DNA of 64,000 nt from Perna viridis (taxonomy: Eukaryota), in assembly GCA_037379345.1 (NCBI GenBank), contig CM074513.1:1116001-1180000 (forward strand), in the 5' to 3' direction. The notes below the pieces were generated by a model. It made no database searches and was not told the DNA's origin. It saw only the letters and a list, made by a program, of their open reading frames with translations. This document shows, piece by piece, positions 14,201 through 52,900 of the stretch. Position numbers and translations under genes: made by a program. Numbering within the stretch: the first letter of the stretch is position 1; each line of letters begins with the position of its first letter.

Positions 14201-17200
14201 TTTGTGTTAAAGTGTTGTTTCTTACTTCTGTCAATAAATGTTTTTATATCTACAAGTGATTAAAGAATTTCTTACCAAAAAAAAACAAATTTTATATCTG
14301 TCAGGGATGATTTTCTTATATTCATCAGTGGATTTTGTATTTTGCAATCCTCTATTTTATCATACCATTCTATTTTTGTACTGTATATTTACTTCCAGTT
14401 TATTAATTTTGGCTTCCCTGCTTTTCTTTGTATTAGATCCTGGATTCATAATACATAACATTATTAAGATATTGCACAACAATTATTCAGTGTACCATTT
14501 CAACCTGAATATTATCTTTACATTTATTCAGAAAAAAGAATAGAAGAAGATGTAGGTGTATGTAGAGGTTATGTCATGACCTTTGACACTGAGGGAATAG
14601 ATAGAACTGTTAAATCATTGGTTGGTAGATGCCGGAGGGTGTGTCAGGTGGCTGAGAGAATTGTTGACTGTCATGATGATCCATTATATAGAAATGGGTT
14701 GTTGGTTTTCATCAAAGGTCTTCATAAAGGTCAGTGATGGCTGATATATGTAGGAGGTTTGAAACATGGTTCAAAGCCATTCTGTTGGAAATAATTATTT
14801 GACCTAGTAATACAGGGGCAAAGTAAAAATCTTGCATACTTCTGTTGGTGTAGGCATCCCCCATAGCAACAAGCAACTTCACAAAACGATTACAAATGTT
14901 TATGTCTTGAAAAATGCATACCCTTTTTTAAACTACTGTAAGGTTGCATTCATAAGTTTTTAAATAAAACTGGTGAATAAAATGTGTGTTTGTCAACAGT
15001 GTTTGAAAGTGTATATACATGTGTATATTTTATCAGAGGATATATGGTTTCAAATATTAACATGAGTTACAATAATAGTACTGTATAAGTAGTTATTTTG
15101 TTGTGATTTTCTTCAAAATCTGGGTAAGTTTTTTTTGCATAATGTAATTTTCACCATAGACAAACAGTTTAATGAATAAGATAAATATAAATAAGTCTAT
15201 TTTAACAGAATAAATATTTAGCATGATTTGATTTTCACATTCCAACTTTGACCCTGAATATATCAAAAATTTAATCTCTGGGAAAATAACCACTTAAACA
15301 GTAACTCCATGAATATCTGTGTTGTATACTAAATAAATGTGCATATTTTTTATGCTTCAAGTTTTTCTAAATGTGGTTTCTATTTTTTGCTGTTGGCTTT
15401 CATGTCTGTTTCAATGACAATCAATGGGGATTTGCCCATTTTAACTGAGTTATTATTCAATTACTAGTTTCCCTTATCTGTAAAAAAAACCAGAATAAAT
15501 TTGTCAGTGAATAGTAAAAACCAAAAAATGAAGTTAAAGAAAAAATAATTATTTGTTATATTTGAACATTTGTATTTTGTATATTGCAAGCTTTTTAGAG
15601 GTGTGTATTTCTTATTCTATGTTTGTCTAAAAATGTGGTACTATATTTTGATGTTTTATCTCTTATTCTCAGCTATAAATGGAACCCGAGCAGCATGTAA
15701 TCATGTGACTTCTGATGTAACCAGCAACACAGCTGTAGAAACCTTACTAAGAAGGCTGACCCAGATATTGGACAGTGTCAGGAAGGTCAAGGACGGACTG
15801 GTTCCTGAGAATCAGCCCAGTCTACTTAGTCCACAGAGGAAAAATCTTAGATTTGCTGGTAGGAAAAAACATTTGTAATAGTACTCATTTTTTACTTTGC
15901 ATTATGTAATTTTGGTGTCTTCCACATATTATAGTTAAAACCTTAAAGTAAAAAATCTAAGTTTTGTGGATGGCTGGTAATTGTCTTTATGGTTAAGTGT
16001 TGTAGATGTATTGTTATACACAGGCAAAATTGCAACATATATTTAGGACTAGTATGGTAAAAATATGTTATGGGCTTTTAAAATACATGAAATCATGTGT
16101 TTTCGAAAACCATATGAAAACTTTTCACTTTTTACAATTGAAATCCTATATAAACATATGAATACCGTATGATTTTTACTTGTTTTTCATTAATTAGTTT
16201 GTTAAGTCAGAAACATATGTTTTACATATGTACATGTAATTCATGGTGGTCCTAAACATACGAAAAACATGTGTTGGAATTTTTCCTGTGTATGCTGCTA
16301 TCTGTCAGGCTGTCAGTTAATCACTCTGCCCACATGTTATTTTGTATATTTAATGCTTTGAGTGAAATAATTGATTTATATTAGTAGAATGTTTGTCTTG
16401 TATGCAGGCACTATTTTTATTTTTCAAAGTTTTACTATGATTCTTTCCAAAATTATGGGACTTTATTATACACCTAAACAGGTGATAGGGAAATCATTAC
16501 TTAGTCGATTTATTGTTTGGAAATTTTTTTTCAGAAGCAGAAAAAAGAGTGAAATCCACTACGTCTTCCAAATTCAAGTTCTCATCAACCGGTGCTCTAA
16601 AATCCCTTCCAATTGACAATAGATTTCTACAGGAGGAGATGTGTAGTAGCGATGACCTTTTCACTCATACATCTGTTCCTACTCTACATAAAGGAGTCCA
16701 TAAACAACACATTTTATCTAATCCTGCACTCGAGAAAAGTCATAGTTCATTACAGAAAAGTTCAGAATCTTTGTGTTCCACTTCATCTGAGGAATCATAT
16801 CACCAATCTGCAGTAACTTTTCACAGATCTAATCAAGGTATTAGATGTAGAATCCTGCTGTTTTTACTTTTCTTTACAGTTTCTTCGTAATTTGTAGAAA
16901 TTTTCAGTGTGAATCAAATATTACAGATTGCGAGTCTGAATAGAAATCTTCATAGATAAACTATAGAGAATCATAGAGTTTAAGTTTAGATAATGTCAAA
17001 TTTACAGAATGCTGGAGTGTATGGCAAACAAATCTTTTCTTAAATAACATGTTGTTAAAAATCATTATGAATTCATTGCCAATTTCTGTGGTTTACTTTT
17101 CACTTTTAGATTTGACCTCTAGATATTATTTCAAGCAAAATTGAAATAAATTATGAAGAATTTGATAAAAAAAAATAATTTCACATTTGAATTAGAAGTT

Positions 17201-20200
17201 TGATTGGTTGGATTTTACATGTATGAAGCAATAGTAGAGTTGTTTTGCTCTTTGCCCCATTGATTGGTTGGGTTTTACATGTGTGAAGCAGTAGCAGAGT
17301 TGTTTTGCTCTTTGCCCCATTGATTGGTTGGGTTTTACATGTATGAAGCAATAGCAGAGTTGTTTTGCTCTTTGCCCCATTGATTGGTTGGGTTTTACAT
17401 GTATGAAGCAATAGCAGAGTTGTTTTGCTCTTTGCCCCATTGATTGGTTGGGTTTTACATGTATGAAGCAATAGCAGAGTTGTTTTGCTCTTTGCCCCAT
17501 TGATTGGTTGGGTTTTACATGTGTGAAGCAATAGTAGAATTGTTTTGCTCTTTGCCCCATTGATTGGTTGGGTTTTACATGTGTGAAGCAATAGCAGAGT
17601 TGTTTTGCTCTTTGCCCCATTGATTGGTTAGGTTTTACATGTGTGAAGCGATAGCAGAGTTGTTTTGCTCTTTGCCCCATTGATTGGTTAGGTTTTACAT
17701 TTGTGAAGCGATAGTAGAGTTGTTTTGCTCTTTGCCCCATTGATTGGTTGGGTTTTACATGTGTGAAGCAATTGTAGAGTTGTTTTGCTCTTTGCCCCAT
17801 TGATTGGTTGGGTTTTACATGTATGAAGCAATAGTAGAGTTGTTTTGCTCTTTGCCTCATTGATTGGTTGGGTTTTACATGTGTGAAGCAATAGTAGAGT
17901 TGTTTTGCTCTTTGCCCCATTGATTGGTTAGGTTTTACATGTGTGAAGCAATAGTAGAGTTGTTTTGCTCTTTGCCCCATTAATTGGTTGGATTTTACAT
18001 GTATGAAGCAATAGCAGAGTTGTTTTGCTCTTTGCTCCATTGATTGGTTGGGTTTTACATGTGTGAAGCAATAGTAGAGTTGTTTTGCTCTTTGCGCAAG
18101 TAATTGTTTTTTTTTATTCTCTACACACTATTATTAAGTGTCATATATATCATATAGATTCTGATAAGAGTATTTTTATGAGTATTGCATAAAAATTAGC
18201 AAAGGTTAATTTTTAGCTTTTTCAGAATGGTGGAAATTTCAGATTTGAAAGCATATGACTGAAAATATTAAAGGCATGATACTGAAATTAATGACTAAAC
18301 ACTCATCCTTATAACGATTTTTGTTAACTGTCTGATGGTGTTTTGACTTTGTTCTTCTCAATATCACTAACTACCATTACACTTTCAGTTGAAAAAACCA
18401 CTACCTCACTCATAACTCAGAGAATCAAGTCAGCAGTCAGCATGGGAGACAAGAAAAGCATTAAATCACTCAGTGGAGATATTCTGGGATGGAGTAATCA
18501 CATTGTTGACAGTGCAGAATGTTTGTTAGTCCACACAGAAAGTACAAAGAAAAGGTTTGTTAGTGTATGGGTAATTTTTGGAAGGTGATGGAAATAAAAG
18601 TTTAATCAATCAAATTCTAAGAGGAAGTAACTATATTGTGACTCATTGGATAATTACTATGTATATATAAGGTTTTTAAGATGCAAAACTTTCATTCTCC
18701 TATGATTGCTTTTTGTAAATTATTCTTTGTACTGATATGACCACAGATTTACTGATTATGACACTATAGTATGCAAATGCTGTCTAATCACCATCAGTGT
18801 ATTCATGCTGCAATGGAGGAGGGAGGTTTGGCATGCTGTAAAACCTAGATTTAACCAACCATTTCGTTTGAAATGCCTTTACCAAGTCAGGACCATTGCA
18901 GTACCAGCTACTCTGGTGATGTAATATCTATTTTGTCAGATTGATTTTGGACTTGACTTGATTATGGATCGGTTTAGTGTTTGGTAATTTTGTTGTTACC
19001 CTTATTTTGTGTAGTACACTGGTCAAAAAGTCAAATAAATTACTCATGATTTACCAAACCCAATATCCAGTATTGGCTCTCAGAACTAAGAGTGATACTC
19101 TCTCATTGTAAGTGTATGTCATATTTTTTTCTTGAAAGGAGCATCCACACTTTGTGCAGTGAAGTTGATGAGATACTGGCAGACATTACAGAGAAGATGA
19201 AATTTGTTGCAATGGGAGACTATGAGAATGTTAGAGAAATCATTAAACAAAGCCAGCAATGGGAAACAAAGGTTCTATTTCCATTCATGAGTTTTAAGGC
19301 TTAATTCACTTCTAAAATAAAATCGGTACAATTTACATCTTAAAACTGTATATTAAACCTTAAGGTTATGAAATATATATATATGCAATGCACTGAGGTT
19401 ACAGTTTTATGATTACTATGTTTTTATTACTTATTTGTTTTGAAATATCTCATAAAAAATTTACAACACTGTTCACTGCATCTACTAATCATAGCCTGTT
19501 GATATCTTAATTAGATAGCACCCATTGAATTGTCGATAGAAGTACAGTTTACTTTTAGGTAGAGAAGATCCGAGTATTTATTGATGTAACCGTAGATTCT
19601 TGGAAGGATATATCTGATTCCGTCTATCAGTCTTCTATAACCTCAGATCAGTCTCTCAAACAACAGGTTAGTCCAATGTATTATTTTTTCCATGTATTTC
19701 CTTTAATCTATGAGAATGGATTAATTCCCAGCTTTATTATACTTTTTATGTAAATGAGGATTTGAAATTTAAGAAGGTTTAAGGGTTAGGCACATCATAT
19801 GCTTTAGCATACTCTCCCCTGTTTGTCATTATTCTCTACAGTTTTTTAATTCTTGTTTAGGTGGATGACCTGAAACACCATACCACCATGGTATCTGAAT
19901 TGATGAGTTTGTCAGAAGACATGGATGATCAAGATATTGGTGAAATTAGATGTCATAGATTACAGGAAAATAGTAATGAACTTGATAACCTAACAGTTAC
20001 CATAGTAACGACCTCAGGTGTACTCACATCTGCTTGTAAGTTCATATTTAATTTAGTTTTGACTGTTGATCATGAAGTGTTTAATTTTTCAGTTCAATAA
20101 CATTTGATTAGTTTGTTTATTTACAGTCTATTTTTCAGGAAAGAAATGCAGGGGGCAATGTAACGTGTTCAACAATGTCAAATCTTTCACAATCTAAGAT

Positions 20201-23200
20201 ATTTTAGGAAGCACTGAAACAAGGTCACATGAATAAGAAAAAGTATCACTTAAAATTAATAAAAATGTATTATAACTAAGTTATTGTGATTTTTTGTGAT
20301 TCTCTCTGTGTAAGTAAAGACTGTCTGATATTTCCATTCTGTTAAACAGTAAATTGTTAACAAAATAACTTGTTGAGAACTGTGATCTTAAAATTTCCTA
20401 CTTATCAAAATAACTATATTAAGATATATTATTCTGTATATTTCAGCATCACATCAGGACAAGAACCAATTGGAACAACTTTGTAGAGAATGGGCTGTTA
20501 GAATATTCTGTGTGGTTAGTGACCTTGAGGATTTAACCTCTGACCTTTACACTAAAGGTCATGACAGGAACTTATGGCCAAGTAATAACATTCCATTGAA
20601 AGATGGGCAGCTATTAGAACATATCCAGTCACAGAATAGTCAGAACAGAGAACTGTTACACAGTGCTTGTCTAGGGTAATCAGGATTTTTATTTTATTTC
20701 CCCACAAAGTTTGGGGTATATACAGATATCCCTACCTGTCTGTCTGTCCACATAAAGCATAAAAACAACTTGTCCTTAAATATACAATGAATTTTGTTTA
20801 TATTTTATAAGAATGTACATGTGTACAAAGAGATAATAATTGTCAGATGTCTTAAAGGGTAGATAATCCAACATTTTACATGTTGAAAAATTGTTGATGC
20901 AATGCCTCCAACTGTTTGATGAATTTTGATGTTGAAAATATCCTTGAATAGTTTATAATATAATTGTAGAGTTTACATTTAAAGGAAAACTTATTCTGAA
21001 ATTATTTATATTTTTAAAAAAATCAATGTAATAAATTGAAAATCATGCGAAGTGAAATCTACCTAACAAAACACTGAGTAAATGTCAATTCAGCCTACCA
21101 ACTGGAAAAAATATCATATAATTCAAATAATGTTAAAGGTGTAAATGTTACTTTTTAGAAATGATGAAACATCAGAATTAGCAACAAGACTATGTAGAGA
21201 TTTAGAAGGATTGTACGATAGCATTAAACAGGCCTCCTCCAGAAAGAAATTGGAGTATCATAAAATGATATTGACATACATCTGTTGTAGACTTGGTCTT
21301 TTAAATGGACAGTGGATACTTAAAGTAAGGCCATCATTCAAAGTTCAAAATCATAGTTAATAATTATTTTGGAACATATTACTAATTTGTAATATTTTTA
21401 TCTTTTTGGTGGTTGGAACTCACTCACATTGATACGTCTCCTAAATTGTTCCCAATTTGAAGAACTTGATGTACTGAACACAAGTTTATAGTCCACATGT
21501 TACATACATAAGGCTAAATATCTAGTAACTATAATATTAAAATACCAACCAGCATATGTTCTCCTCATGGAATATAAATAGAACCATCTAAAATTTGTTG
21601 CATTTTCTGTCAATTTCTGAGTGGCAAGTTAATTGGTGCATTGCCACACCTGAGAATCATATGAAGTAGAACAAATGATAATCATATGAATCAAACATGA
21701 TTAATATTGTTTGAATTTACGTATGATAATCACATGATTGTCTTTTTCATAAACATATTGATAATTATATTTTAGCAAGTTAATATGACTTAAGGCTTGG
21801 AGGGATGGAGCTATTGGTTATCAACTTACATTTAGCCTTATTTACAATACACCATTATGTTGTTGTATTTATCAACAGGAATTTATGAGATTTCCGAATA
21901 CATGATGTGCATCTACATTTAAAGTTCAAACAATTAAATTTATCACTTCCCACAGAAAGATTTTGAGCCATACATGTTTTGACAGACAAACTACATTCAT
22001 GTATATAGGACGTTCCTGATGCTCTGTCCCTAGTAATAACATATAAAAAATTTTGATATTGTTATGTGATTATCATATGTAAATAATCCTATGATATGAT
22101 TATCATATGTAAATAATCCTGTGATATGATTATCATATGTAAATAATCCTGTGATATGATTATCATAATTGTCACTTATGGCTCTGTAGATTCTTCTCAT
22201 GAAATTCAATCTTATTATTTTTTAGAGTATAAGATGTATAGATCTGGTACAGGAACAAATCTTAATGTATACAGTCCTGCTCAATAAACTCTCTGACAGT
22301 GCTATGGAAGTTAGAACTGCTAAATCTGGTAAGAAAATTACACACACTTTTAACATTTGCCTCGAAATGTTTAACTACTACTGTTGTTTGTCAGTCATGT
22401 GTTTGTGAACAGTTTATAATTTACTTCCTTCTATAGAATTTGAACTCGCTTGATCCTAATTGATATCTTACCCTATTGATTTTCTAGGTCATTTATCAAA
22501 GGTAATTTTTTCACCATATTTTGTTGCCCTATTTAATTGTGATTTTTGTTGTTTTTTTTTTTTAAGTTTTAAGGGTATTGAGATATTCCAGAGACAAATA
22601 ATAAAACAATGACTTTCAAGTGCTGAGACAGTATTGGTAATTGCAAAAAAAGTAAAAAATGGGTCTACGTTTTGCCACGTTTATACAATTTTTGCAGAAA
22701 TTTTGTATTTTCTTCATTCAATTTTAGTCATTCATTTTGTCTGTAGACAACTACTACATGTATATTAGCCATATTTTATCATCTGTAAAGTTTGTCAGGG
22801 CACTGTAAAAGAAATGCTAAAAATAGAAATACTAGCTACATTCAATTTCCAAGATAACTCTAATCAAAGAACTTTGGTTTCATGACCTCTTGAGAAATTC
22901 ACGTTTTGTAGTGCTAAGGCCAGATATCAAGTTTTACACTCTAAGGCCAGATATCAAGTTTTACACTCTAAGGTCAGATATCAAGTTTTACACTCTAAGG
23001 CCAGATATCAAGTTTTACACTTACACTCTAAGGTCAGATATCAAGTTTTACACTCTAAGGCCAGATATCAAGTTTTACACTCTAAGGTCAAATATCAAGT
23101 TTTACACTCTAAGGTCAGATATCAAGTTTTACACTCTAAGGCCAGATATCAAGTTTTACACTCTAAGGCCAGATATCAAGTTTTACTATGTAATGTATTT

Positions 23201-26200
23201 TATTAATATTTTATTCAGTTTTTTACATCAGGACAATTAAACACGCAGTAACTACATTTTTTACCATGGAAACTTAATTAATTAGTTTTCTGTTTTATGT
23301 ACAGAATCTGACAGACAGATGTGTATGTCTGAGTTCCAGCTCTCCCTGAGTAAGTTCAGTGAGAGTCTGATGAGTCTGAGACAGAAGACGTTACAAGGTA
23401 TACAGCTGTCTACAGAGCTAGAGAAGAGATCTGCTGTTAGGAAATGTCTGGATGAACTTACTGGCCTTTCTCCTCAACTGATTGATGGTGTTAAAAAATT
23501 ACTTGGTAAGATTTACTGTAAAAGTTTTAAATTTCGTGGTTGCTAAACATCTATGATTCTGTGGTGAGTACATATTTCTTGGTATCAATTTAAAAAAAAA
23601 TGAAAAGCATTAAATAGTGTTTAAAATAAATTTTGGTTGTATTATTTTTCTGTCCATTGTGAAAATAGCAAAACTAATAACAGGGTACAAATTAATACAG
23701 TTACAGTAGTTACATGAAAAGGCTTGTCATAAAAGTGAGTGTAGTACTGAACTTAAAGTCAATATTTGATTGACTTGTACTTGTAGTACTGAACTTAAAG
23801 TCAATATTAGATTGACTTGTAGTACTGAACTTAAAGTCAATATTAGATTGACTTGTAGTACTGAACTTAAAGTCAGTATTTGATTGACTTGTAATACTGA
23901 ACTTAAAGTCAGTATTAGATTGACTTGTAGTACTGAACTTAAAGTCAGTATTAGATTGACTTGTAGTACTGAACTTAAAGTCAATATTTGATTGACTTGT
24001 AGTACTGAACTTAAAGTCAGTATTAGATTGACTTGTAGTACTGAACTTAAAGTCAGTATTTGATTGACTTGTAGTACTGAACTTAAAGTCAGTATTTGAT
24101 TGACTTGTGAGAAAGCACTGGAAATATGTCTGGGTTAGATCTGAATTCATTTTACATTTTGGAACATGTCACTTATGGTTCTTTCTTGTACTGCATAGTT
24201 AATTTTGCCTGACCAGAGATCAGATTCTCTAAACAACTTGCTGGTTATTTGAGATTAACCTTACTTATGTTTCATCCACAAAGAAACTCAACTGAGGATT
24301 GGAGTTGTTCATGACCAAACTCTATATTCTTGCTTGCTTAGCTTACATCTCTTCAGACCATCTCCTCATCTGATTTGTGTAGTCAAAATGTTAACCGGTA
24401 GAACTAGAAAATCTTGCTTATATATACATAAAATTGATTATTTTTTCCACAATCTGAAATCTATTGCATGTATTACATATATTTTTTGCTCTTAAAATAT
24501 GTTGGTTTTTTTTTAAATCAAAATCACTTGCCTTAATTATTTATAGAAAAAACAGATTTGAAGCCAACAATGGACGAATTCAACAAGCAGACGATATGTT
24601 GGGCTGTCAAAGTTAGACAACTCTTGGCTAGTATTCAACAAATGAAAGATTTAAAACCGGGATTCATCATTAGTATGTATATTCAGTATAACTTCACAAA
24701 TAAAATCAGGGAACCATAATACCTATACACTTTCAACCATCATTAATGGGTTAACTCTTACAGCTAGTAGAAATCTTCTAATTTTGGTATTGATGCATAT
24801 ATGTTAATGAGTCTTTTTTTCTGGAGATGACAATGTTATTTGTGGATCTCTTTATGAGGAAATACTGTTCCACCAGTTATCAGGTTGTTGTCATACAGAA
24901 ATCTTCCAGTTGTTGTCTTACCTGTCATTGATTCAACTTCATGGTGGCCCATTACGTTCTCTGTATCACTCATCTTTTATTTACAAGATAATCGTAAAAA
25001 ATGTTATCAAGTTGAGTTTGTTAACACTAATTTCACATGAAAAATTTTTGCACTCATAATTTTTTTGTTGAAAGTTGTGCTTGATTCAAGCTCAGGATTG
25101 ATTTTTCTAAAAGTAGGCATTTGAAAGAATTAATCTTGGTAATTGCATTTTCAATAGATTTACACAAAGCACTAGGTGTGAAGACCACAGACATACAGAC
25201 TCTATCAGACAATGTTGAGCCTACAGATGAACTTACAGATTCTGCTAGACCAGTTTCGAAGAAGACTGTACATGAAGAATTACTTCAAGTAACGAGGTAA
25301 TGAGATGGCTATTTCTCATTTGTTGAAAAATAAGGCATTAATCCGGTTTGCTAACTCAATTTAAATAATTTTATAAAGAGACAGTTAATTCAAATGATTT
25401 TTGAGGAATCTCATTTAACACATTTTGCTGTTAATCAACGAGTGATGGTATATTGGAATCACCTTGTCATTCAGTTCAAAGTTTGGTTGCAATTATCTAA
25501 GCTTCCAGTATACAGTTTTATTGAAGGAATATGAACTTGTTCAAAAAAATAGATCTGAATATTTCAGCTGTTGTTAAATTGAGATTTTTTTGTTATTGTT
25601 CCACTCCTCAAAAGTGCTGTAGTCAACCAAATTTGTTCGTATTTCGATCTGTATTGAATTCCTGTGTGAATTATTATAACTTTATTTCAGTGAAAAACAA
25701 AACACAGCAATTGGTCAGTTTCCAAGAATGGTGAGGAAAAAGAAGGCAACTGATTCTCCCTACAAACCTAGCACATCTGTATTGGTAGGTGTATTCCCTA
25801 ATTAAAAGATGTATGTTGTGTGTATGGGTTTGCTCATTAAATACACAAAATACATGTTAAAAGACCTGCTCTCAGTAGTATAATAAAATTCTCCTGCAAT
25901 ATTTGTCATTTCTCAGGAGTGTAAAAAAGAAAAAGTAAGCTCAAACTTCTATTATAACACACTCTGTTGATGTTCAGGTATACTTTAGTGTATGATGTTG
26001 CAGATCAAACAAAACTCATGATATGTAATTTGACATATTGAAACTTGAAATACTACATTCTTAGAAATAAGGTTGACTTTCACTTTATATTTTGACAAAT
26101 TTTAAAATATGCCTGTTGGTAAAGACGGGGGGAAATATTTTGGATTGTAAGGTCTGTAGATTTTTTTTTAAGTTTGCTGCAACAACATTTCATTGTGGTT

Positions 26201-29200
26201 GATACCTTGGTAACTATCTTTCATAGTTTCCTTTGGAAGAAATAACGGTCTTCATAAAACATTGTCTTAAGATGCCATTTGTAGGATATGACCTTGAAAA
26301 GCCTAGGCTGTAGTGTTGTTATATGCAAAAATTGGGATCATTTGAATTCAGATTCTAGACCCATAGTCAGAGGCTTATGTTATTTATAATGATTCTGTTT
26401 TCTTTGTTAGCATTTAAAATTGTTGAAACTATGATAAATTTGGTTAAGCATTATTAAGGTTGAGAAAAAATTGTCCAGTTAACATCCCTTTAAACCGAAA
26501 TTATTTCTGGCTAAGTACATGCAAATCCAGTACCTATCATTATTTCTTTTGATATTTTTGCAGGCTGCTGCCAAGTATCTACAGTCTGAAGCAGAGAAGT
26601 GGGAAGATGATTGTAATCCTATTGTCAAGGTTGCCAAGGAGATGTCAGTACACTTAAACAATATGGCTGACTATACTAAAGGTGGAGGTCAAATCCAGGT
26701 GAGTGATGGTGGATTATGAAATTGAAAGTTTTCAAAGATGCAGCAGTCCTTTTCACAAAAAATTGTAAGTGTAAAATAAGTCATATTGTATGATGCCATA
26801 AAAGAACAAAGTACTGTGATTTCATAACTGAAAATTCATTTTACACTTATGAATTTTTGTGAAAGCGAACTACAGGTGCTTGATATATTTATGGTAAAAC
26901 TTGTTAAACAGATGGGGAAAATACCTGTTTTTCATCTTTCATTTCAAATTAAGATTTGATGTTTGGTATATCATCACATTGTACTGTTGTTGAGGAAACA
27001 AATAGTTCTAGTATAGCACTACATGTATCATCAAACTGTCTGATATCTTCAGTCTATTGCTAATGCAATAATACCAGACAATATTGCCAATTTCTAATGA
27101 CAGTGTTATAGCTATCAAATTAATTGTGACATCAGCAGTAAACAGAATATCATTAATTTTGAACCTCTTGACCAACTATCATATCGTGTTCAATCAGACT
27201 CAGAGTGATGCCTTCAGTCTCAACTTCAAAACTGACATTCTGTTATTTGGGAAAGTCACATGTATGAATAATATAACATGTCATTAGAGATTGGTAAAAC
27301 TTAAAGGTAACATAGAAATAGCCTGAGATGAAAAAAAATATCAGGTATTCATACATTTATATGTTTCAAACTGCACACAAACATTGTGTGAATTCATGTT
27401 ACTTCATTGTAGTTTTGTGAGTAACTTTATCTTAGAGTCCATGGAATATTATTCAAAAATGTGTAAGGAAAAAAAATTGCAGATTGTAAAAAATAAAAGG
27501 AGATTTGAGGAGAAATATTTTATTATGAAAGTACAAAGTCATTGATATTAATTAATCAGGTACATCTACAAATTTCTTAGCAAGCTCTGCAAAAATAAGT
27601 TTCATGGCATCGTCAGGTTCTTCTAAGGCATTTTCTTTTAATATAGTATATTGCATGTATTTTAAAACTGAAAGCAAATTTTCATGTAACTGTTGAATTG
27701 TACCTGGATCAATATTTTGTAAAAAGTTCAAGATTCCATTGTGCTCATCTACAACTGTTGTTGGTATTGAGATAGTAAATTTAGAATAATCTACTAGGGT
27801 AGGGAAAGCATACTGAAGTGACTGGTTTCCGAAAGTGACTGGTATGCATCCACTTGTTATTGAATCATAGAACGATTTTCTCGTCGGGGAATCACCAGGG
27901 GGCTGTAGACAGAACACTGAATGCTGCATCCACATCACTAAGTTTTTATCAGTTTTTCCATCACACCCTGTTACCTCAAAGAATACCATGTTGATTGGTT
28001 TATTTTGATTTTTGTATTCTTGATATGAATATTTTGTTTTGTATAAAAACTGGTCCATTATTTTACTTCTGAAATCATTCTTGTATGACATCCCTGCTGG
28101 AAGGAGTATGTAAACATCTCGTTGATTAAGATTACCAACTGGTAACCTGTTGTCAATTATATTTTCTGGTGCCAGATGTATGAATGAAGGGTATGGTATG
28201 ACAATGATTGACTGGGAAGCAGTTCTCATGTAATCATTGTAGTTTAGATTTGTCTCCCTTTCTATTGCCAGAAAAGTGATATTTTTAGTAACATTATACT
28301 GTAAATAAGGGCAAAATTCACCGCACATTTCTCTGTGAATCATGCTAATGGTTGAAAAATGAGGCTTCCCTTCTTTGAAATATTTTTGTGACTGCAAAAA
28401 GTCTGTAAGATTTAGAATCAGTTGTTCACTTAAGCTTGTAAAGTAGTATTTGTTATAAAAAATACAATGTGTGCCAACGTAAGCTGGTACATAAAATATG
28501 TCTGCTTCTTCTGGATTGAGGGTACGGAAAGTACTGTGCAACAGTTTTTTATGAATTATGACCTCCAGTGAGAATTGATCAGTGTTTCTGATGGACATTT
28601 CACCATTTTCGCCAAGTTTCATCAATTCATCACCCATTCCATTGCTTTCTAGGGAAATGCAGTTGGTGTACCCATAACGTTGTTTAGCATATTCTACAAT
28701 ATCATCATTCATTGACGACGGCAGATCATAAACAAAGATCTTGAGTTCCTTGTTTATAGCTGTGTCATCTTTGGAAGAGTTCCAAAATTGTAGTGATGTT
28801 TCCCTAAAATTATGTTTAAAAAATTCTTATTGAGTCTTAAGATAGATCATACCAAGATTTGTCTCAATTTTCTCAGGGAAGATGTTGGTTGTTTGTGGAC
28901 AAAGTACTTATCTGACAACTGTTAATATTTTTAATGACAGGTAGAAAATTAAGGGTGACATAACTTTGTTCCTAGTTCCTTAAAAAAAAAACAACTAATA
29001 TTCCATATTTAAGACAAATTATCTCCCCCTTTGAAGAGACTTTATAGAATAAAATGTATGTTATTTTTTCATTTAAAATTTGTTCTCTAAAATTCTTTCA
29101 GAATTACCAAAAAATTAAGTTTTTAAAGTATATCAAACACTGTTTGCTCATTTTAACTACATGTATTTCTATATGAATTTGCATGATGGCCATGCAAAAA

Positions 29201-32200
29201 GATGCTCTATGCAGATTTCAGATAGAGGAAAACAATTTAAAACATGCTGAAATACTTATTTTAGTTTTAAGAAGTATATAGACCATTAGATTTTAATTAA
29301 GAATATAATAATGCAAAATTCTTTTATCATTGAAGGTTGATGAACTTTTTCAAATTAATAATTCAGAAAGTTGAGGTATCTATGGAATTTTTGATTCACT
29401 TAAACATAGGGACTTAAAGTTCTTTAATGATACAACAATCAGTTTGGACGTTTTGTGGGGGTTTTGTCCAAAAGATGTTCAAAAGTGAAAATGAAAATGT
29501 ATTGGACTGATAAATATCAAAATGTATTGGACTGAGAAATATCACAATGTATTGGACTGAGAAATATCAAAATGTATTGGACTGATAAAAATTTATTAAT
29601 TCACCACTCCTCTTATGAAACTGGTAAGTAAAAAGAATTTTCAAAGAATTTTTCCCCTTTTGGAAAATGAAAAGTGGACTTTTCAGTCATTATCTATGTA
29701 CTTTCAATTAAACAGTGAAATCATACATAGGTTGTGTATGGTAATGATTTTGTAAACAGAAATTAACTCAGTAAAGTATGTTAAATATTACTTACGTAAG
29801 AACAATGAGCCCAGTGAAGCAGTAATATAGGATTCCCTTCATTATCATTTTCCTGAGGCTGTTCTGAATTAATTTATTCAGAAAACTTGACCTGCTAAAT
29901 TGTTGTTGAGTTTATTTACCAGAAAATCTTGAGTTTTAGTGATAAAAAAAATCCAACCACTTATATACTTGATCTCAACTCTAGGCCTGGTAATTATTTT
30001 TTTATATAAGTATATGAGACGATAACCTTGCAGTAGGTGTTAGCAGTAAATTGGTCGTAAAAATGTTGATGTTTTTATGAAAAGGATAAATAGTTTGCAT
30101 AAATGAATTGTAAAAAAAACAATTGTTTATTTGTCTTAAGTGTTATTGATTAAACAGCAGCTTGGGACTTAAAAGATTTTAGTGAAACTTGGTACACTTG
30201 TTAAATGAGACAGTTGGTGTTTTATGAGACTGTTATTGGTCTATCAAATAGTACTTAATGTTAGAATCGATTAACTGTAGGATAAAAACATCCACACCTA
30301 ATCTACTTCTATGGCTGTTTTACACCATTTGATTGTGAAGGTATAATGAAAAGAAGGCTAGTCATGACTGGTTATAACTGGATAGTTTAAGAATGTGGTT
30401 CAACCTCTTAGTCTCATAAAATTATATTTAATGAATTTTGTTATCCAAATTTTGGTATAAAGTCTGTCATGATTTTATTTATTGGTTATTCGCTGTTACT
30501 AAGATATAATTTAATTTCAGAAGCAGCATGCTTCCTGATTGTATAAAAAATCTGTACATCATCTTATAGACCAAATTTTGTAATGTCTCTGTGACGTCAT
30601 CTACCTTTTGATATGATTTACTTGTTGAATTTTGATACTAAAATTAAATTATAAGGAATGACTTTTGTATTTTTTTTGGTCTATTTGAAATAACCTAATT
30701 GCTTATGGTGCACACTATGCAGGTTATTTAGTGTGCACCACCTGATTGAGGTTATTTTTTTCATAGACCGAAAAAATATTTGTTTTGTAGAACCATGAGG
30801 AGTTATTGAGGATAGCCAAGGTTGTTGCTGAGAATGGAAGAAAAATGATGAAATTTGCTGAAATACTCTCACAACATTGTGTTGAAAAGAGGTATGGGCT
30901 GAAATCAAGCTAATGTTTGTTTCTATGACAACTATGTATTATGTTAGTTCTGATTATGGTTATTTGTTAAACATATTTTACTCTGGAAAAAGAAAAACAA
31001 AATATACACATGAAGTGTTCTATGATTCCACTTTCCCATCACCTGTGCCATTTTGGTATAGGAAAATTGATTATTATGACCCACTTTCCCTTCGACAAGT
31101 AGAAAGCTTGAATTTTTGAAGTTTGGGAAGCAAATTTCAAGTGTGGGAAAGTTAATCTCCGTTTAGAGTTTTCCCATGGAAACCTAGAATTTTGATAAGT
31201 TGTAGAACACTGACATGACAACAACACCTGACTGAAATGATCTGGAAACTATCATTGCTCCCTTTACAAGTCCAACTCAGGATTACTAGGGTAAAACTGC
31301 CGCCAAAAAAATGCATGTGCAACAGGTATTTCATTTGTCAAACAAACATTTTTCTTTTTCCCACACATGGGAATCATCCACAGTACATAGGCATTTACAT
31401 GTATATGTCACACATGTGAAATGCATGTGCCTTACATATGCAGATGTGTGGCATTTTTGGCAGTATATGGTTACTATTAAATGTATGTGTGTACTCCTTA
31501 TATTCTTTACAGAAGGTTTGGAATAATAGATGTTTTTCATTGTCGATTGAGATACAAATTTTCTTAAAATGTCCGTTGCAATTTGAAAATATTGATTCCT
31601 GTATGTAAACTCTGATTACCAACAATATCTTGTAAAATTGTGAAAATATATTGTTGATATAAGTACTTTCACAATATATTGTAATAAAATATTTGAGTTA
31701 ATGTTTATTTTGTAATCACAGTACAGGCAGAAACCTACCCAAGTTAAAATTATCTCCCATTTCATTGTGATTTTTATCTGTCGAGGAAATGGCTGCAATA
31801 GGCCGTTATTGGTTCTGATACGGAAAATGATCGAATTTGAACAACATTCACATGTTGATAATATATGTCTGGTGAAAAGTGCTTTCTACATGTATGGTGA
31901 ACAGGAAACGACAAGTGTAGATCGTGCCGTTTGCTTAACAGATTTGTAAAACGATGATTTCTTTGGATGGATAAGTTGTGAAAAATTCTTTTATTGGTGG
32001 TAATATGTGGTGCCCGGATGATATTTCATGGTTTAAAATTGGATCACGTGCCTTAATTGTATGGTAAGTGTTTCTAATTTCCTAGAAAGTAAAAATTGTT
32101 TTCCTCCAAAGTCGCATATAGAAGTGATCCCCTTAAACTTAAAATTTTACTTGAAGACACAACACACGTACATTATTAAGTAAACAAAAAGGGTCATAGG

Positions 32201-41499: not shown

Positions 41500-41935
41500 G
41501 TCAAGGTGCCTACATGGATTCCAGTTACGAAACAACGTCATGGATGTAAAATTCGCTTAGTTTTGTATAGTACACAAGTTCATTTTTCTCCTTCAGTATA
41601 TTGCATGATGCATCAGAAACAATGATGTTTTGTATTGATGTTACACACATAGCATGTGGTTTGAATTTGTTTGAAAAAGTATTGACAACAGAGTTGCCAT
41701 AGTAGTAAGAATAAATATTTTCTGTTAATTCCCATTTTACCACCCGGAACCCATTGTCATGTGATAAACCATCTATTATATAGACAACCTCAATCTTCAA
41801 ATTAGTCATGCATATTGGGTACATTATAATGGGTTCTTTATTTTTGTTGCACTCCAGACTTCTTTTAAACTTTCCATCTAAGGTCTTAACTATGACAGCT
41901 CTCCTTCCGTGATGTGGAACGATGAAAATTAATTT
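41500..41935 (-). pseudogene. Degraded NHL-repeat beta-propeller fragment of a TRIM2/3/71-like gene
   Basis: Extended frame reads GRRAVIVKTLDGKFKRSLECNKNKEPIIMYP..IIDGLSHDNGFRVV..YYGNSVVNTFSNKFKPHAMCVTSIQNIIVSD, resembling bivalve TRIM-NHL C-termini (recognised by eye); truncated, with no B-box region nearby. Confidence 0.6.
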
Positions 41936-42444
41936 GTTTCCAACATGTTTGTATTATACATTTGACCTTCAAAGCTCAATTACTCTAATTTAAGTCAAAG
42001 AAATATTACAGCTTCTGAAATAGTTTTCTGCTTCATGGATAACTTGGTACAAAAAGTGACAACACAAAACAATACTAGAATTTGTTTAATGTGATTTAAT
42101 AAAACTCCAGCTTCTCTCATAGTTACATGTAACAAAAATTTATAACAATGGCATCTTCATGATTATGTACAATTCACCAGAACAAAAAAGGTTATACATT
42201 TACTTCCATATCCTAGTTACCTGATTAAATTTTACCGAGAATTTTTGCAATAATTTCTTATTTGGATTTTTTATTGTCCATTAGAAATCTAATTTTTTCT
42301 AATTATATATCCTGATAAACTCATGACAATTATTCTACACTAGTCCCACTTTGGTTTAAGATTTGACCCTTGGACCGACCTTACCACATGCCCCCCTCCC
42401 CACCCCAAAAAAAAAATAATCAAATGATAATGAGCAACTAAAAC

Positions 42445-46475: not shown

Positions 46476-46957
46476 TCACGTTTTGTAAATTTTTATGACA
46501 TCATGAATTGTCTGTCGACAAATTGGGCACAGTGACCCTTTGTCTTTGACCTGTATTGCACATTCAAAACACATGCACACATGTCCACATTTGTATAACA
46601 CCGAGTTCACTTCTCGTTCGTAACACACAGTACATTCATTGTTTTCATTTTCTGGGATTGTATTTTCTGTTGGTGATGTAGGTGTTGATACAGAATGTGA
46701 TTTCTTTGGCGGAACTGGTGGAGACGATTTGTTGTGGACACCAGATGGCACACTGAAGCTACGGGTCATAGATTGTTGCTGCTGCTGTTGTAATAAATGC
46801 TGCTGTTGAAGTGAGCTGGTGTGAGAATTAGCTATGTTTTGAGAAGCAGGCTGGATTGGTCTTTCTGGACGAGGAAGCGCTACACTGAGTGGTCCCTGGG
46901 TAAGATAGGAAGTGGAGCGTGGTCTGGGTGGCACAGGAGGTTGATGGGGGGCTACAC
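46476..46957 (-). CDS. neur: neuralized last coding exon (Pro/Gln-rich linker plus RING)
   Basis: Acceptor tttcag at 46958; VAPHQPPVPPRP..polyQ..C3HC4 RING..IKIYKT then stop. Confidence 0.92.
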
Positions 46958-49900
46958 CTGAAATGGAGATATTTGATTAATTGACATTACACAATAAGGT
47001 TTTATCTGTTTTTCAAGCAGCTAAGTAAGTCACTACTGAACCTCAAGAACAGCACAGAAATTCAGACATGATACCTCTTCAATGTCAATACTGAAACATG
47101 TATTCCATTGGGAAGACATCTTCACAATGAAAGGGCACTTGTGTCCACTTGGGTGAACACAGGAGCTCTGACTCAATGGGAATGAAGGGAAGAGGGAAAC
47201 CTGTAAATCAAAACTGAATGTGTGATGTCTTAAGATCTCACTTTGCCATTATATGTACAAAACTGAACCTCAAATTTTCAGAGATACAACTGTGCCCTTG
47301 ACCTCTCACCTTAAAATTCAAAAGGGTTTGCAATTTCCCTACGGATGAAGTATGTACTTGCAAGAACTTTACATGATTGTAATATCTACTAAAATCATAT
47401 TGAGATAAATAAAGCTCAATTCATGTTCAAATGAGGCCAAATTTTACATTTAAAAGAAAGCTTCGACCTTAACTAACAGGAATAGAGATAATCCAAACTG
47501 AATGACAGTCAGACATACAGAATTGATAGCAACTGAACATTGATATTCTCCCATATTTTATCGCTGGGGCATTTTAACAACTGCATTACAACAAAATGCT
47601 TGATGACAGACAGACAGACAGAAAGACAGACAGACAGGCATAATTGATAGTAATTGAACATTGATGTGCTCTCAAATTTCATCACTGGAGCTCCAAGAAA
47701 TGTTTGATAACATTAATTCTTTTTGTTTCTTCATTATCATTTAATGAAATATGAAGGATAGCTGTAAGAGTTATTGCATAACTGAAAACATTGGAAAATT
47801 ATCATATTTGATAAAATTTGGCAAGAAACTAGGTTTTTCAAGAGCATTGCTGAAACCTTTGGAACCTTGATACAAATTACATACATCTACATTTTTGCTA
47901 CTTTATTAGCATTACAGCTCCTGGTTAGAATCAGGCAGATTTAAATCCAATTTAACACAAAGTGAAAATTGTAAGGGCAATCCTTTGAAATGCCTGTGAT
48001 AATATGAATTTTGAAAAAAATGGGAAGTCTTGAATTTTTAACAATCAAATAGAAAGCTGATTTATACAATGATTTTCCTGAAGAAACTTAACATTTTCAA
48101 AATCACAAGGAACACATCTTTGGAAATGTACAATTCGTATATCATGCAATATAATGCAGCTTTATCAACTGAAGGTGCAGAGAAAACTGAAGACATACAA
48201 CAAAAACACAAGATTAAGGCAACCATTTTCTTTAGATTTTATCAACAAGATGTACGCATCATCATGCTAAGAATACCCCCACACAGCCATTTCAGTCAAA
48301 GCTGGGAAAAGGAGACACAGTACAATTTGACATGTAGAAGTTATATACTGAATATCTAAGTATTCCATGCTATAGAAGCTGAGAAATCTGTAATGAAAGC
48401 ACCCTAAAAAACTACAAAGTCGATCAGTAAACAGGAAATAGTTAAGTAATGAACCTGAAAAAGGAAAAAAAAACTGTATAACTTATCATGAGGAAGCAAT
48501 AAACCAAACATCTAAGCAATCCCTCCAGCAGAACTTGAGAAATCTAGAAAAAAGGTGTAATGGATGGATCTACACAACGATAGACTGATAGATGGAGGGA
48601 CGGAATGACAAATGGACAAGGTGATTGCAATATAGCCCCCATTCTAATGAGTTGGGGTATAATTAAAATTTTGACAGTTTCATTCTGCATGAGGTGTAGT
48701 ATTCTACATGAACTACATGTTCTACAGTCTGTACTGTTTGTACATAAAGTTTCTTGCAGAATGGCATACAAAAATTGTAACACATTTATCACTGATCTCC
48801 TAGATAATATGTAATGCACAGGATTGGAATCTTTGGAGATTCAGTCAAAATAGCTGATTTTCAAATTATATTTGCAGTTCATTATTTTATAGTGATCTTA
48901 TCCAAATATTGATCATTTTTCCAAAACTCAGTAGTTAATGACAAACAATGAAATCTTTATTTCTTTTCAGTTTTATGCATATAGATACTTGTAGGTAATT
49001 TGAATACAAGTCTACATGTACTAAGATACGTGTAACCTACCCACCACCCTCCCCATAAAACTGACCTTCACCTTCACCAACGAAAATGAAATGATTTTTT
49101 CCATAATTTCTGACTATCAGAAACGGGCACTAAATCACAATTCATATCAAAGAGATCTCAATCATCAAAGCATAGCAGAAGAATGCAGAAATCATTACAT
49201 TCAAATCAAAGTGCTGACAGAACTAGCATTAGTTCTTATCCAGGAGATCTATAAACAAACATATGTCTCCATGTTGTATTTGTTTAAACATCATTTACAT
49301 TACCATCAACAAACAATCAGTGAAGAATTAGCACTGGGTTAAAGTTCAATGTGCAAACAAGCACGACTGCACGTAACTGACAGGTACTCCACATAGCATA
49401 TTAAAAAGATACATCTGGAAGTATGCAGGGGTAGAAATAAGAAGATTCGTCCAACTGGTCAAGCAAGCAATTTTTGCCCAAATTGAACTGGCCTGGAGTG
49501 AAGTTTAAAATTATGTGGCCCAGCAGTAAAGGGCTGTTTGAATTTGACTTGCTTGACACGAAGCCGCATGTAGGAGAGCACATATTTCTACTCCTTGGCA
49601 CAAATAATATTTTGCCTTTTCCAATGCATGTTTATTGACTTTTTTACACAGAACATCTCTATTTATATGCGCATTGTATTTCCTTCTGACTATTTTACTC
49701 TCAATCAAAGCCAACTTTCACTTGTTAACCATACATTTTTAGGTTTACTTGCTTGAGCTTGGTATCTATAAATTGCATTTAAATCTGTTTAAACTGAACA
49801 TCATTCCGTCTGAAAGTTTTATTTGGTTTTGGAAAGTGTTCAGATGAGGTCTAAAATGCATTAAAACTATTACCGTAGAGCAGGAAATTTTCATGTGATT

Positions 49901-52900
49901 TTATTTCATGCTATATTCTTGAGGTTTCTGCATGTTAGGAAATTGCAAAAAAAAGCTTGCCAAATTTTATTCAATATATTTATTCATATAATTTCCATTC
50001 CACTTCATCTAAAGATGTGAAAAACAAAGACTGCGAACATTTAATAACCCTATTTATAGAGTAAATCATGATATTTGGCACCAAATAAAATTCCCCGCCA
50101 TACAGTATTTAATCACTACAGATGAGAGATTTAGTCTGGTTCTCGGTTTTATTCAGGATTGGGTTGATTTCACTATATCTTAATTAACTCAACTACAAGG
50201 TGTGCCAAATTTAAATTATTTTGTCAACACAAAAATATCAGTGAGGAATTTCCTTGATTTATCATCACTGAAAATGTCACATGTAAATTTTATTCAATAT
50301 TCACAGCAGTATTAAAACTTGAAATAATTTTACACATGACATTTGTCATATTTTTATCAATTTAAAATATGTATTACACATAATAATGAGTATGTTATGA
50401 TCAAAACATTTAATATGGCATTTACAATGCATAACAATTCAGATTGTATATAAATTTAAATTCAAGGTTAGAATAATTTATATGAAGAAATTTGGCAGGT
50501 ATTAGAAATGAGCAGAATGTCAAGTACATTCTGGGAAGTTATCTTGAAAGATGAAGATGAGCTGGGCAAACTCATAATGTACCATACACATCCAAATAAT
50601 CAGTAATTCTGTTCCATCTGTAAATGTATCAAGGGCAGTATCTCCAAAAACTAAAACAAGTATTGAATAGAAATCTGATAAGTCTACATGAACTTGAAAT
50701 GTAAGATAGAATTTGTTTGTAAATTGTAAATATTTTTCCCAGCTCAAAAGGTACAGACACATGTTTACTGAGACTCATAATGTACACATTTTACATGTCA
50801 AAAAATATATTATAATAAAGAATATTTCTTGTAAGAAAGGTTCTGATAAAAATTAAGGTACCTGTCAAATACAGTGAATAGAGAAAGTGAACAGACATCT
50901 ATATTCCCCCAGTGATGCAATTCCAGTGGCGGATCCAAAGGGGTGTGTTCAGGGGGTTGGCACCCCTCCTTTTTATTGGAAAATTTGTCATTTTCAAGTG
51001 TAAAATTGACAAAAAAATGTAAATTATGTCCTAGCATACCCCTTTTATCTGAGGAACTCCAGCTTGCACCCCTCCTTTTCAAAGTGTCAGGATCCACCAC
51101 TGTATTCTACAATACATATCTAATCATACGAAAGTTCACCAGGTCTATTGAAATGTTCTTTTGACTACTTGTATTACATTTCAAGCAAGTAAAGTTTTCG
51201 TTATAGTTAGATCAAGAAGTTTTAACATTGGCTTAATGACTAATGATTATAATGGTTAGCAGTGAACAATGAGACTGCAAACTCATATCTGTATATACTA
51301 CTTGATGACAATTCATATTTTTCACCGTATCCTATGGAAATGATCTGTAAAATCCTGAACTTTCTGAAATTTTAACAAAAGTACTATGGAGACATTCACA
51401 ATCTGTAGAGCATAATTTGCAGTCAAAATTCATAAAAAATACGAAAATTTGTTTAAGTAAACACATCTGCAAACTGTCCAATGTGGGTCCTGACTCACAT
51501 CACATCAACTAGTTGACATAACTGGTATCCATGTATCTTATAGAGACATCTTTATGGCAAAAATTTCCTTGAGTGACCAACAAAAAATATTTTTTGGTCT
51601 GGCAGAACCTTCAAGTCTGTCTCTTCAGCCAGTTATAAAAAGTTTAAAATTCAGGCTCAACGCATTATTTTATTACAAGTCCAAAAGGGGTTAAAATCTA
51701 AGAGTGAAAGGTTCATGACTTTTCCAAGATTAAAAGGTCCAGGACTTCCAAGTTTCAAATCAATGGTCCACTTGAAGAAATCATTCTATAATAAAATGTT
51801 GATTTATAGAGTTTAAGGTCCAGAACCCATGTAAATGAAATTTCAGAGGTCCTAGGTAAGAAATTGAGGGTCTGCTGCTCCATGGTCTAGAAATGCCAGA
51901 AGCCATGAACCCTTTGCACTTAAATACTGAAAATTGGCCTTAAGCAAAGGATTTACAATGTAACTTAGGAGACCTTTTTTTTTAATTTCTATTTGAATCA
52001 CTGACAGGCACATCATTTGAACTTTGATACAAAATGTAAAAATCCATCTGTTCATTCATCTAAAATTCAACAGAAAACTGTTGGTGTACAATTTCTTCCC
52101 ATGACAAACAGATATAGACTTGTTTCAACATGCTTAAAACAAATTCATCTTCAAAAAAAGTAAATTAACAAGTAGATGTTTCAGAAACACCTGAGAGGTC
52201 AAAGGTAACACCCAATCAATAATTCTCCTAACTGAAGATGCACAAAATGCACCTTCTTACGTCATTAACTTCTTTCCTGCTAGGAAATTTATCATCTGAA
52301 GTGTGTGCCGAATGATTTTCTGACAACACATTCCACTTTACTGCTATCAATAAAAAAATGTCAGAATTATTCTTTATATTTTAGAAATTTCTTTTGAAAG
52401 AATTCACCTCTAGATAAAAGCTATCAGAATCAAAGACAACTTAGTTTTGATCATGATGTTTGGATCCCGTTCAAAGTTTTAAGCTTTCATACAAAACAAA
52501 GAAAGATATAATGTAGATATATGATGAAGACAATGACCCAAAACTTTTATAAACATCAACTGTAAGTTAATGAACCACACTTTTTCTTACTTAAGCAGTT
52601 TTATGAAAAACTAGAAAAAATTTGTCAGTTAATCACAGATACTCCTACCTTTAAAATTTAAAAAAGTGAAAAAGGGACATAACTCAAATATGGTGCAATA
52701 CCCAGTAAAAAAAAATTCCCTGAATTTTATGGCCTGCGTTTTCAAGTCTTGTAAAAGATCACTGAGTGGTTCTTCATTTACAAAAATATCATCCTTAAAC
52801 CAAGTATGATTAATGTAGATATATATGGATGGACAAGGCTACATAACAGTCCCTATATATTTCCTAACTTATGGATGGACAAGCCTACATAACAGTCCCT

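Follow-up and report, generated by a model that had tools for sequence, protein, structure and literature searches.

A nested and spliced GT47 gene

The subject of this analysis is a gene for a predicted glycosyltransferase of family GT47 in the mussel Perna viridis. It lies in a window of 64,000 nucleotides (nt), by which we mean the whole stretch of DNA that was analysed (assembly GCA_037379345.1, contig CM074513.1, positions 1,116,001 to 1,180,000 of the forward strand); coordinates below are those of the window. The gene occupies the minus strand, antisense within a 4092-nt intron (26699-30790) of a plus-strand gene of the vinculin/alpha-catenin family. Its two exons join into a translation of 434 amino acids (aa) with no internal stop codon, and there is no second GT47 copy within the 64-kb window. 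The parts of the gene are as follows.

29796..29848, minus strand: exon 1, 53 nt, with the ATG and the hydrophobic N-terminus (residues 1-17 plus two bases); read from the translation, and inside a spliced contig of run X9 that extends to 29850
28804..29795, minus strand: intron, 992 nt, phase 2, GT..AG (CT..AC on the plus strand); skipped exactly in the contig joint
27552..28803, minus strand: exon 2, a short stem and the entire catalytic domain through the stop codon; from the open reading frame (ORF), Pfam and the predicted model
27726..28754, minus strand: Pfam Exostosin_GT47 match, residues 35-377 of 434; Pfam scan
27519..27524, minus strand: candidate polyadenylation signal shortly past the stop codon, putatively used; a contig of run X1 terminates at 27517

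Apart from the 424-codon stop-to-stop frame at 27552-28826 (minus strand), the region has no long frame that is not repetitive. In run X9 a 1255-nt contig spans 27604-29850 with exactly the 992-nt intron removed, which bears out the claim of an initial annotation, made from the letters alone, that an intact protein of about 434 aa is encoded here. X9 is very likely RNA: the host gene is spliced there and most intron bins are without depth. The depth of the GT47 contig in X9 (38.9) may be compared with that of the host (40.9), and in X1 there are partial GT47 contigs at a depth near 2.8. The gene is therefore real, expressed and spliced, with expression that is uneven between runs. Being a spliced gene within a spliced host intron, it is not a contaminant, as had also been argued at the outset. 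The Mytilus coruscus orthologue (P0003, 435 aa) has a similar N-terminus. The Mytilus galloprovincialis model P0001 appears to be without the first exon, entering exon 2 from the intron and losing the hydrophobic N-terminus. The hydrophobic stretch encoded by exon 1 of the Perna gene, which had been called a membrane anchor, is present; it is short, about 13 residues, and a cleavable signal peptide is for this reason as possible as an anchor.

The protein matches Pfam Exostosin_GT47 over profile positions 2-291 of 293 (E value 1.7e-40, 139.6 bits against a cut-off of 33.4), and the GT47 motifs quoted earlier are present in it. It is a stand-alone GT47, as had been proposed: no GT64 or other Pfam family was detected in the 434 aa, and the stop codon follows the GT47 domain in exon 2. 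Nor was GT64 present in any of the 21 relatives scanned, six of which are 761-1402 aa long. Longer fused forms numbered 0 among 3918 candidates of 1160-3310 aa, which is weak evidence, the range of 729-1159 aa having been covered through the general exhaustive search only. The predicted structure has a GT-B fold (predicted local distance difference test score, pLDDT, 92.7; predicted template modelling score, pTM, 0.93). A structure search with this model retrieved EXTL3 with a Z score of 19.9 (root mean square deviation, rmsd, 3.9 over 301 aligned residues) and EXT2 with 19.6 (rmsd 4.0 over 291), whereas the next unrelated GT-B structure stood at 12.6 and other GT-B enzymes at 12.6 and lower. 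The EXT structural matches share 10-15% identity with the query. In GT47 enzymes a conserved Asp or Glu on helix C-alpha4 is required for activity and binds the nucleotide ribose, according to the accessible text of PMC9178029. In the model D331 is placed in a helix (305-316 in ORF numbering), and in the profile alignment it pairs with the Asp of EXT2. This position is Asp in 113 of 113 rows of the animal clade described below, and those of R326 and R263 are Arg in 111 of 113.

The whole catalytic domain does lie in one exon, as had been noticed. This arrangement is family-wide, being found in loci of animals as well as plants (the domain is unbroken in all 8 of the 8 animal-clade metagenome loci that were checked), and is therefore no sign of transfer; as a mark of either transfer or retroposition it was rejected.

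The host gene has many exons (window 6239-30893, plus strand, and probably further) and a transcript contig of about 4.1 kb. The two exons that flank the nested gene cover consecutive positions of Pfam Vinculin, each below the cut-off as a short piece.

26564..26698, plus strand: host exon upstream of the nested gene; Pfam Vinculin 683-724, E 7e-7, below the curated cut-off; spliced in four of four runs
30791..30893, plus strand: host exon downstream of the nested gene; Pfam Vinculin 728-760, E 0.063, weak and below the cut-off; spliced junction

The junction across the host intron is carried by 4 reads in X10, 5 reads in X11 and one contig each in X9 and X1. Host exons were unmatched in the 82 loci fetched. 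One host exon weakly matches Serendipity_A (E 9e-4), and the host may for this reason be a divergent catulin-like paralogue. Elsewhere in the window there is a gene for a neuralized-type E3 ligase at 46476-57175 (minus strand; Neuralized domain E 3e-28, C-terminal RING E 5e-15), and a 142-codon frame at 41525-41953 (minus strand) without a Pfam match, which we take to resemble a piece of the NHL/beta-propeller tail found in TRIM-like genes of bivalves. Intronic minisatellites at 9612-11377, 17181-18127, 22836-23240, 23710-24168 and 29488-29587 generate long spurious repetitive ORFs; the last of these lies inside the GT47 intron and is a short 25-nt tandem repeat. At 30556-30780 and 26743-26865 there are dispersed repeats, short and partly palindromic, to which partial reads from other parts of the genome align in their hundreds; these repeats are likely to be elements resembling miniature inverted-repeat transposable elements.

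Relatives and phylogeny

A first search returned 243 proteins at E <= 0.001 among 1812 candidates (the best 120 of 243 listed), and an exhaustive search returned 1853 (the best 150 of 1853 listed). Among the matches listed in the first search, the best 101, down to E 7e-33, are named invertebrate or unnamed proteins, and named plants enter at rank 102 with 26-32% identity. The Perna protein is 65% identical to Mytilus proteins. Seven phyla are named: molluscs (bivalves, gastropods and a chiton), nemerteans (Lineus, Tubulanus), annelids (Owenia), brachiopods (Lingula), hemichordates (Ptychodera, Glandiceps, Saccoglossus), echinoderms (Acanthaster, Patiria, Diadema, Lytechinus, Apostichopus) and amphioxus (Branchiostoma). 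No named vertebrate, arthropod, nematode, cnidarian, sponge or choanoflagellate was found among the matches listed, most of which are nameless, so that loss in vertebrates, arthropods, nematodes, cnidarians and sponges is only suggested. A search of the ESM Atlas gave generic GT47 clusters only. Members of the group stand in RefSeq and UniRef, at 29-66% identity to the Perna protein, under plant-derived names such as “MUR3”, “probable xyloglucan galactosyltransferase GT14-GT20” and “KATAMARI1-like”. These entries are orthologues or paralogues of the Perna gene, with names transferred by similarity.

Outside animals and plants, relatives occur in the chytrids Geranomyces (116 bits in the exhaustive search), Thoreauomyces and Zopfochytrium, in basidiomycete yeasts, and in the ichthyosporeans Chromosphaera and Amoebidium. 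In our set the GT47-A-like proteins of chytrid fungi and ichthyosporeans are P0149, P0236, P0237 and P0292; P0195; and P0200. Two kinds of donor were considered and rejected. None of 36 pattern matches in prokaryote genome contigs encoded a relative, and of four viral loci, at 22-27% identity, the best (L001) fell with the outgroup. The product of this locus (2956-4920 of a viral contig of 200 kb) is a 654-aa protein whose N-terminal part is distantly GT47-like and whose C-terminal part we presume to be a sulfotransferase from its appearance; a second distant GT47-like copy (L002) is on the same contig.

The initial annotation had called the protein plant-like. By alignment scores its resemblance to plant GT47-A (MUR3/XLT2/XUT1) is indeed far greater than that to EXT. 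Our profile A1 scores EXT2 at 45 bits and EXT1 at 25 bits, whereas a profile built from animal sequences only scores 25 named plant GT47-A rows at 160-239 bits and F8H-type rows at about 80; the single Perna sequence found no EXT in the Protein Data Bank at E up to 1. Since the trees contain no EXT sequence, it is by these scores that the protein is set apart from EXT.

The main tree was built from 66 chosen rows with IQ-TREE (LG+G4) and rooted on two plant non-A GT47s, one environmental and one viral row; other selections were also used, a first tree having left out 108 of 329 rows. In the 66-row tree a branch with support 98/94 sets apart an animal clade of 24 named animal rows and 9 rows that were then unnamed. 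Twelve named land-plant GT47-A rows form a branch of their own (100/98) with no animals inside. Within the main animal branch the deuterostomes (100/96) are sister to the spiralians (100/97), and in the spiralian part there follow molluscs (98/76), gastropods (93/90), bivalves (99/94) and five mussel rows that include the Perna protein (100/95), which itself pairs with a Mytilus orthologue (100/100). Thus, in these trees, the invertebrate clade lies outside land-plant GT47-A and its branching broadly follows the species tree. A smaller animal branch joins Saccoglossus, Tubulanus and Owenia (93/83), and suggests a gene duplication before the protostome-deuterostome split, so that the bilaterian ancestor may already have carried both copies. 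Under a mixture model, a tree of 46 rows, from which 20 long, gappy or redundant rows had been left out, retained the main groups with weaker support (for the animal clade, 87 in the Shimodaira-Hasegawa-like approximate likelihood ratio test). The approximately unbiased (AU) test rejected a tree with the animals sister to XUT1 (p-AU 2.7e-74). It gave p-AU 0.028 for the animals as direct sister of all land-plant GT47-A, and did not reject a group of animals, fungi, Chromosphaera and two environmental rows with Amoebidium left out (p-AU 0.094).

Donor site, predicted activity and the weighing of alternatives

The accessible text of PMC10952531 lists five donor-pocket regions of GT47-A. With the roles of the positions taken from the parts of that paper and of PMC9178029 available to us, the predicted donor-site residues of the Perna protein are Q94-F95, M172-I173, I198-E199, Y222 and G321-K327, with D331 as the ribose-binding residue. 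These positions were counted in the 295 of 335 rows that passed a 60% coverage filter. A Lys in region 2 is present in 99 of 140 animal-clade rows and in 25 of 30 rows of the XUT1 clade, compared with 8 of 82 other plant GT47-A rows and 1 of 43 other rows. The P..K form of region 5, the GDS loop, is found in 113/140, 28/30, 11/82 and 17/43 of the same groups. The aromatic..R loop of the galactosyltransferase type is present in none of the 140 animal-clade rows, as against 48 of the 82 plant rows outside XUT1. Judged from the aligned donor positions, the closest plant match of the animal clade is therefore XUT1, not MUR3/KATAMARI1/XLT2 as the motifs had first suggested. The XUT1 labels here are database names, not assays. 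The region 2 Lys looks convergent between the animal clade and XUT1.

As a whole, these results are best read as an old eukaryotic GT47-A-like lineage that has been vertically inherited since at least the bilaterian ancestor and kept by spiralians, ambulacrarians and amphioxus; the gene would descend from it. The enzyme would act in the secretory pathway, probably the Golgi if it follows its family, as a side-chain transferase with inverting chemistry and no need for a metal, and it would add one sugar per step rather than grow a polymer, since there is no GT64 partner domain. To the joint claim of ancient vertical descent and an active side-chain transferase, leaving the donor aside, we give a probability of about 0.7. 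For the donor of the clade, UDP-glucuronic acid (UDP-GlcA) is our leading guess from the residue patterns, and a tentative one. UDP-galactose (UDP-Gal) comes next, as a possibility that we would not bet on; some other UDP-sugar is unlikely, and UDP-xylose (UDP-Xyl) more unlikely still. In the first of these cases one GlcA might be moved from UDP-GlcA onto a branch of a glycoprotein or glycolipid glycan. A candidate product can be named: the accessible part of PMC6994554 describes GlcA on the antennal fucose of N-glycans in Mytilus edulis and the marine snail Volvarina rubella, and, in the accessible part of PMC8699351, glycans with branched fucose are placed on the extrapallial protein of Mytilus and molluscs are expected to have unknown glycosyltransferases with new specificities. 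A GlcA transferase would on these grounds be a reasonable activity to test first.

The initial annotation had offered lateral transfer or ancient retention as the source of the gene, and it is the second part that stands. Lateral transfer into the mussel is not supported, because the clade spans seven phyla with species-like branching, and the gene is not a one-off transfer. A recent origin from a land plant or alga, or plant contamination, would fit the database names such as MUR3 and the single-exon domain. We regard it as refuted, given the far higher identity to Mytilus than to plants, the orthologues elsewhere among invertebrates, the rejected nesting with XUT1, the gene's own spliced intron inside a spliced animal intron, the unbroken domain of the metagenome loci, and a GC content at third codon positions of 0.32, as in two exons of the nearby neuralized gene (0.32-0.34). 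We consider it unlikely that the gene was transferred once, long ago, from an alga or protist into a bilaterian or animal of the stem lineage and was inherited vertically from then on. This reading draws on the lack of named cnidarians, sponges and choanoflagellates among the matches listed; on the accessible text of PMC9178029, which mentions exostosin-clade sequences of Amphimedon and Monosiga and no GT47-A-like ones; and on the trees, where the nearest non-animal rows are unnamed environmental proteins and the opisthokont rows do not form one clade when unconstrained. Taxonomic gaps are weak evidence when most matches are nameless, however, and relatives do occur in chytrids, basidiomycete yeasts and two ichthyosporeans; no donor lineage emerges, and the tree uniting animals, fungi and Chromosphaera was not rejected. 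Several points nevertheless weigh against vertical descent from an old eukaryotic lineage: the deep backbone is poorly resolved, in both trees the Amoebidium row groups more closely with land-plant GT47-A than with animals, and the groups for the AU test were named after the tree had been seen.

With the same origin, the protein could instead be a neutral-sugar transferase like MUR3/XLT2/MBGT1 or XBT, placing a beta-Gal or beta-Xyl on the 2-position of an invertebrate glycan sugar, and this we hold to be a serious possibility at somewhat less than even odds. Of the galactosyltransferase pattern listed in PMC10952531, the Perna protein retains QF, IE and Y, and most characterised GT47-A enzymes transfer Gal, arabinose or Xyl. 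It is also without the Lys common to XUT1. Against a neutral sugar stands the complete lack of the aromatic..R loop in the animal clade, and acceptors such as xyloglucan are not known in molluscs. The Perna protein in fact departs from the galactosyltransferase pattern, matching it in regions 1, 3 and 4, with Met for Arg in region 2 and the P..K form in region 5. The case for a uronic acid, for its part, meets a number of objections. The P..K loop is probably ancestral rather than specific for uronic acids, because it is also found in moss and spikemoss rows and in 17 of the 43 rows from neither plants nor animals; Lys in place of Arg at region 2 adds no charge; and the Perna protein carries Met172 at the Lys position, as do 10 of 140 animal rows, His174 in place of the Glu or Gln usual at that site, and Ser257 in place of the Arg present in 86 of 113 animal rows. 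GT47-A activities are not yet predictable from sequence, to judge from PMC10952531, and the accessible portions of PMC11662442 and PMC12962292 describe frequent donor switching and 1,2-linked single-sugar products. Finally, insects make a GlcA-on-fucose O-glycan (PMC6994554, in part), while the Drosophila GT47s sampled fell in the exostosin clade (PMC9178029, in part), so that this linkage is possible without the animal clade. The changes at the donor site also bear on the Perna gene itself. In all four of the orthologues nearest to it the His is present and the Arg is gone, and the Lys survives in three; as one of several mussel paralogues with a drifted donor site, it may therefore differ in activity from its clade. 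That it is a degenerate or secreted non-catalytic copy seems to us quite improbable. Its stem is short (the domain starts at residue 40, compared with 70-145 in 8 of 10 other rows measured), its hydrophobic N-terminus is short, three otherwise conserved positions are changed, and expression was low or lacking in two RNA runs. In these runs, of each of which 19-24% was read, exon 2 drew no reads in X10 and filled one bin only, at depth 2.9, in X11, which counts against an active enzyme as well. On the other hand, the frame is open, the 65% identical Mytilus orthologues share the short stem, His174 and a residue other than Arg at 257, and D331, R326, K327, R263, E199 and E98 are all kept. Silent variants made up 4 of 8 in the contigs against 20% expected at random, the numbers being small.

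The gene belongs to an uncharacterised and widespread invertebrate subfamily of a known enzyme family, already labelled in databases by its plant look-alikes. Broad vertical inheritance with a known function would have counted against the initial annotation: the inheritance is indeed broad and, on the best reading, vertical, and no experimental study of these invertebrate proteins or published activity was found in the open literature, which was consulted mostly as listings and the openings of abstracts and does not establish absence from print; in their accessible text PMC11468063 and PMC4449007 touch GT47 merely in passing, and the latter describes a similarly wide early-eukaryote spread for GT43. 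The GT47 tree in the available part of PMC9178029 places its opisthokont sequences in clade G, that of the exostosins, with only plants in clade A, its animal-side sampling being human, fly, nematode, a sponge and a choanoflagellate only. Should it be confirmed that seven further phyla share a conserved GT47-A-like clade and that chytrids and ichthyosporeans have related proteins, the origin of MUR3-like enzymes would lie far before land plants, and the clade would offer named proteins as candidates for those sugar transfers in the glycans of molluscs and echinoderms that have no assigned enzyme. A much bolder proposal is that many marine invertebrates possess a second, non-exostosin class of GT47, of bilaterian-ancestor age and a counterpart of the plant hemicellulose-decorating enzymes, which would be the missing glucuronosyltransferase for branched mollusc glycans (for example those of mussel shell-forming fluid) and would have reached an XUT1-like uronic-acid pocket independently of plants. 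We consider it unlikely that all of this will prove correct.

Comparison with known GT47 systems

The plant GT47-A enzymes (MUR3/KATAMARI1, XLT2, XST, XDT, XBT, MBGT1) resemble the Perna protein in having a single GT47 domain behind a hydrophobic N-terminus, and in their motifs and donor-pocket layout. They differ in their low identity to it, in forming a separate clade and in the aromatic..R loop, where the Perna side has P..K. In a mussel one would not expect xyloglucan or glucomannan as an acceptor. The XUT1 subclade of xyloglucan galacturonosyltransferases has the same form of GDS loop and the same region 2 Lys as most of the animal clade; the Perna protein itself has Met for this Lys. Since XUT1 and the animal clade are not sister groups, their donor-site match must reflect either shared ancestry or convergence. 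XUT1 transfers galacturonic acid, whereas GlcA is the usual hexuronic acid of animals (PMC6994554, in the part available). EXT1, EXT2 and EXTL3, of GT47 clade G, share with the Perna model the GT-B fold and the acidic residue on C-alpha4, and the GT47 domain of EXT1 is described in the accessible text of PMC9675754 as a metal-independent GlcA transferase. The EXT and EXTL proteins are bi-domain enzymes with a C-terminal GT64, whereas the Perna protein consists of GT47 only.

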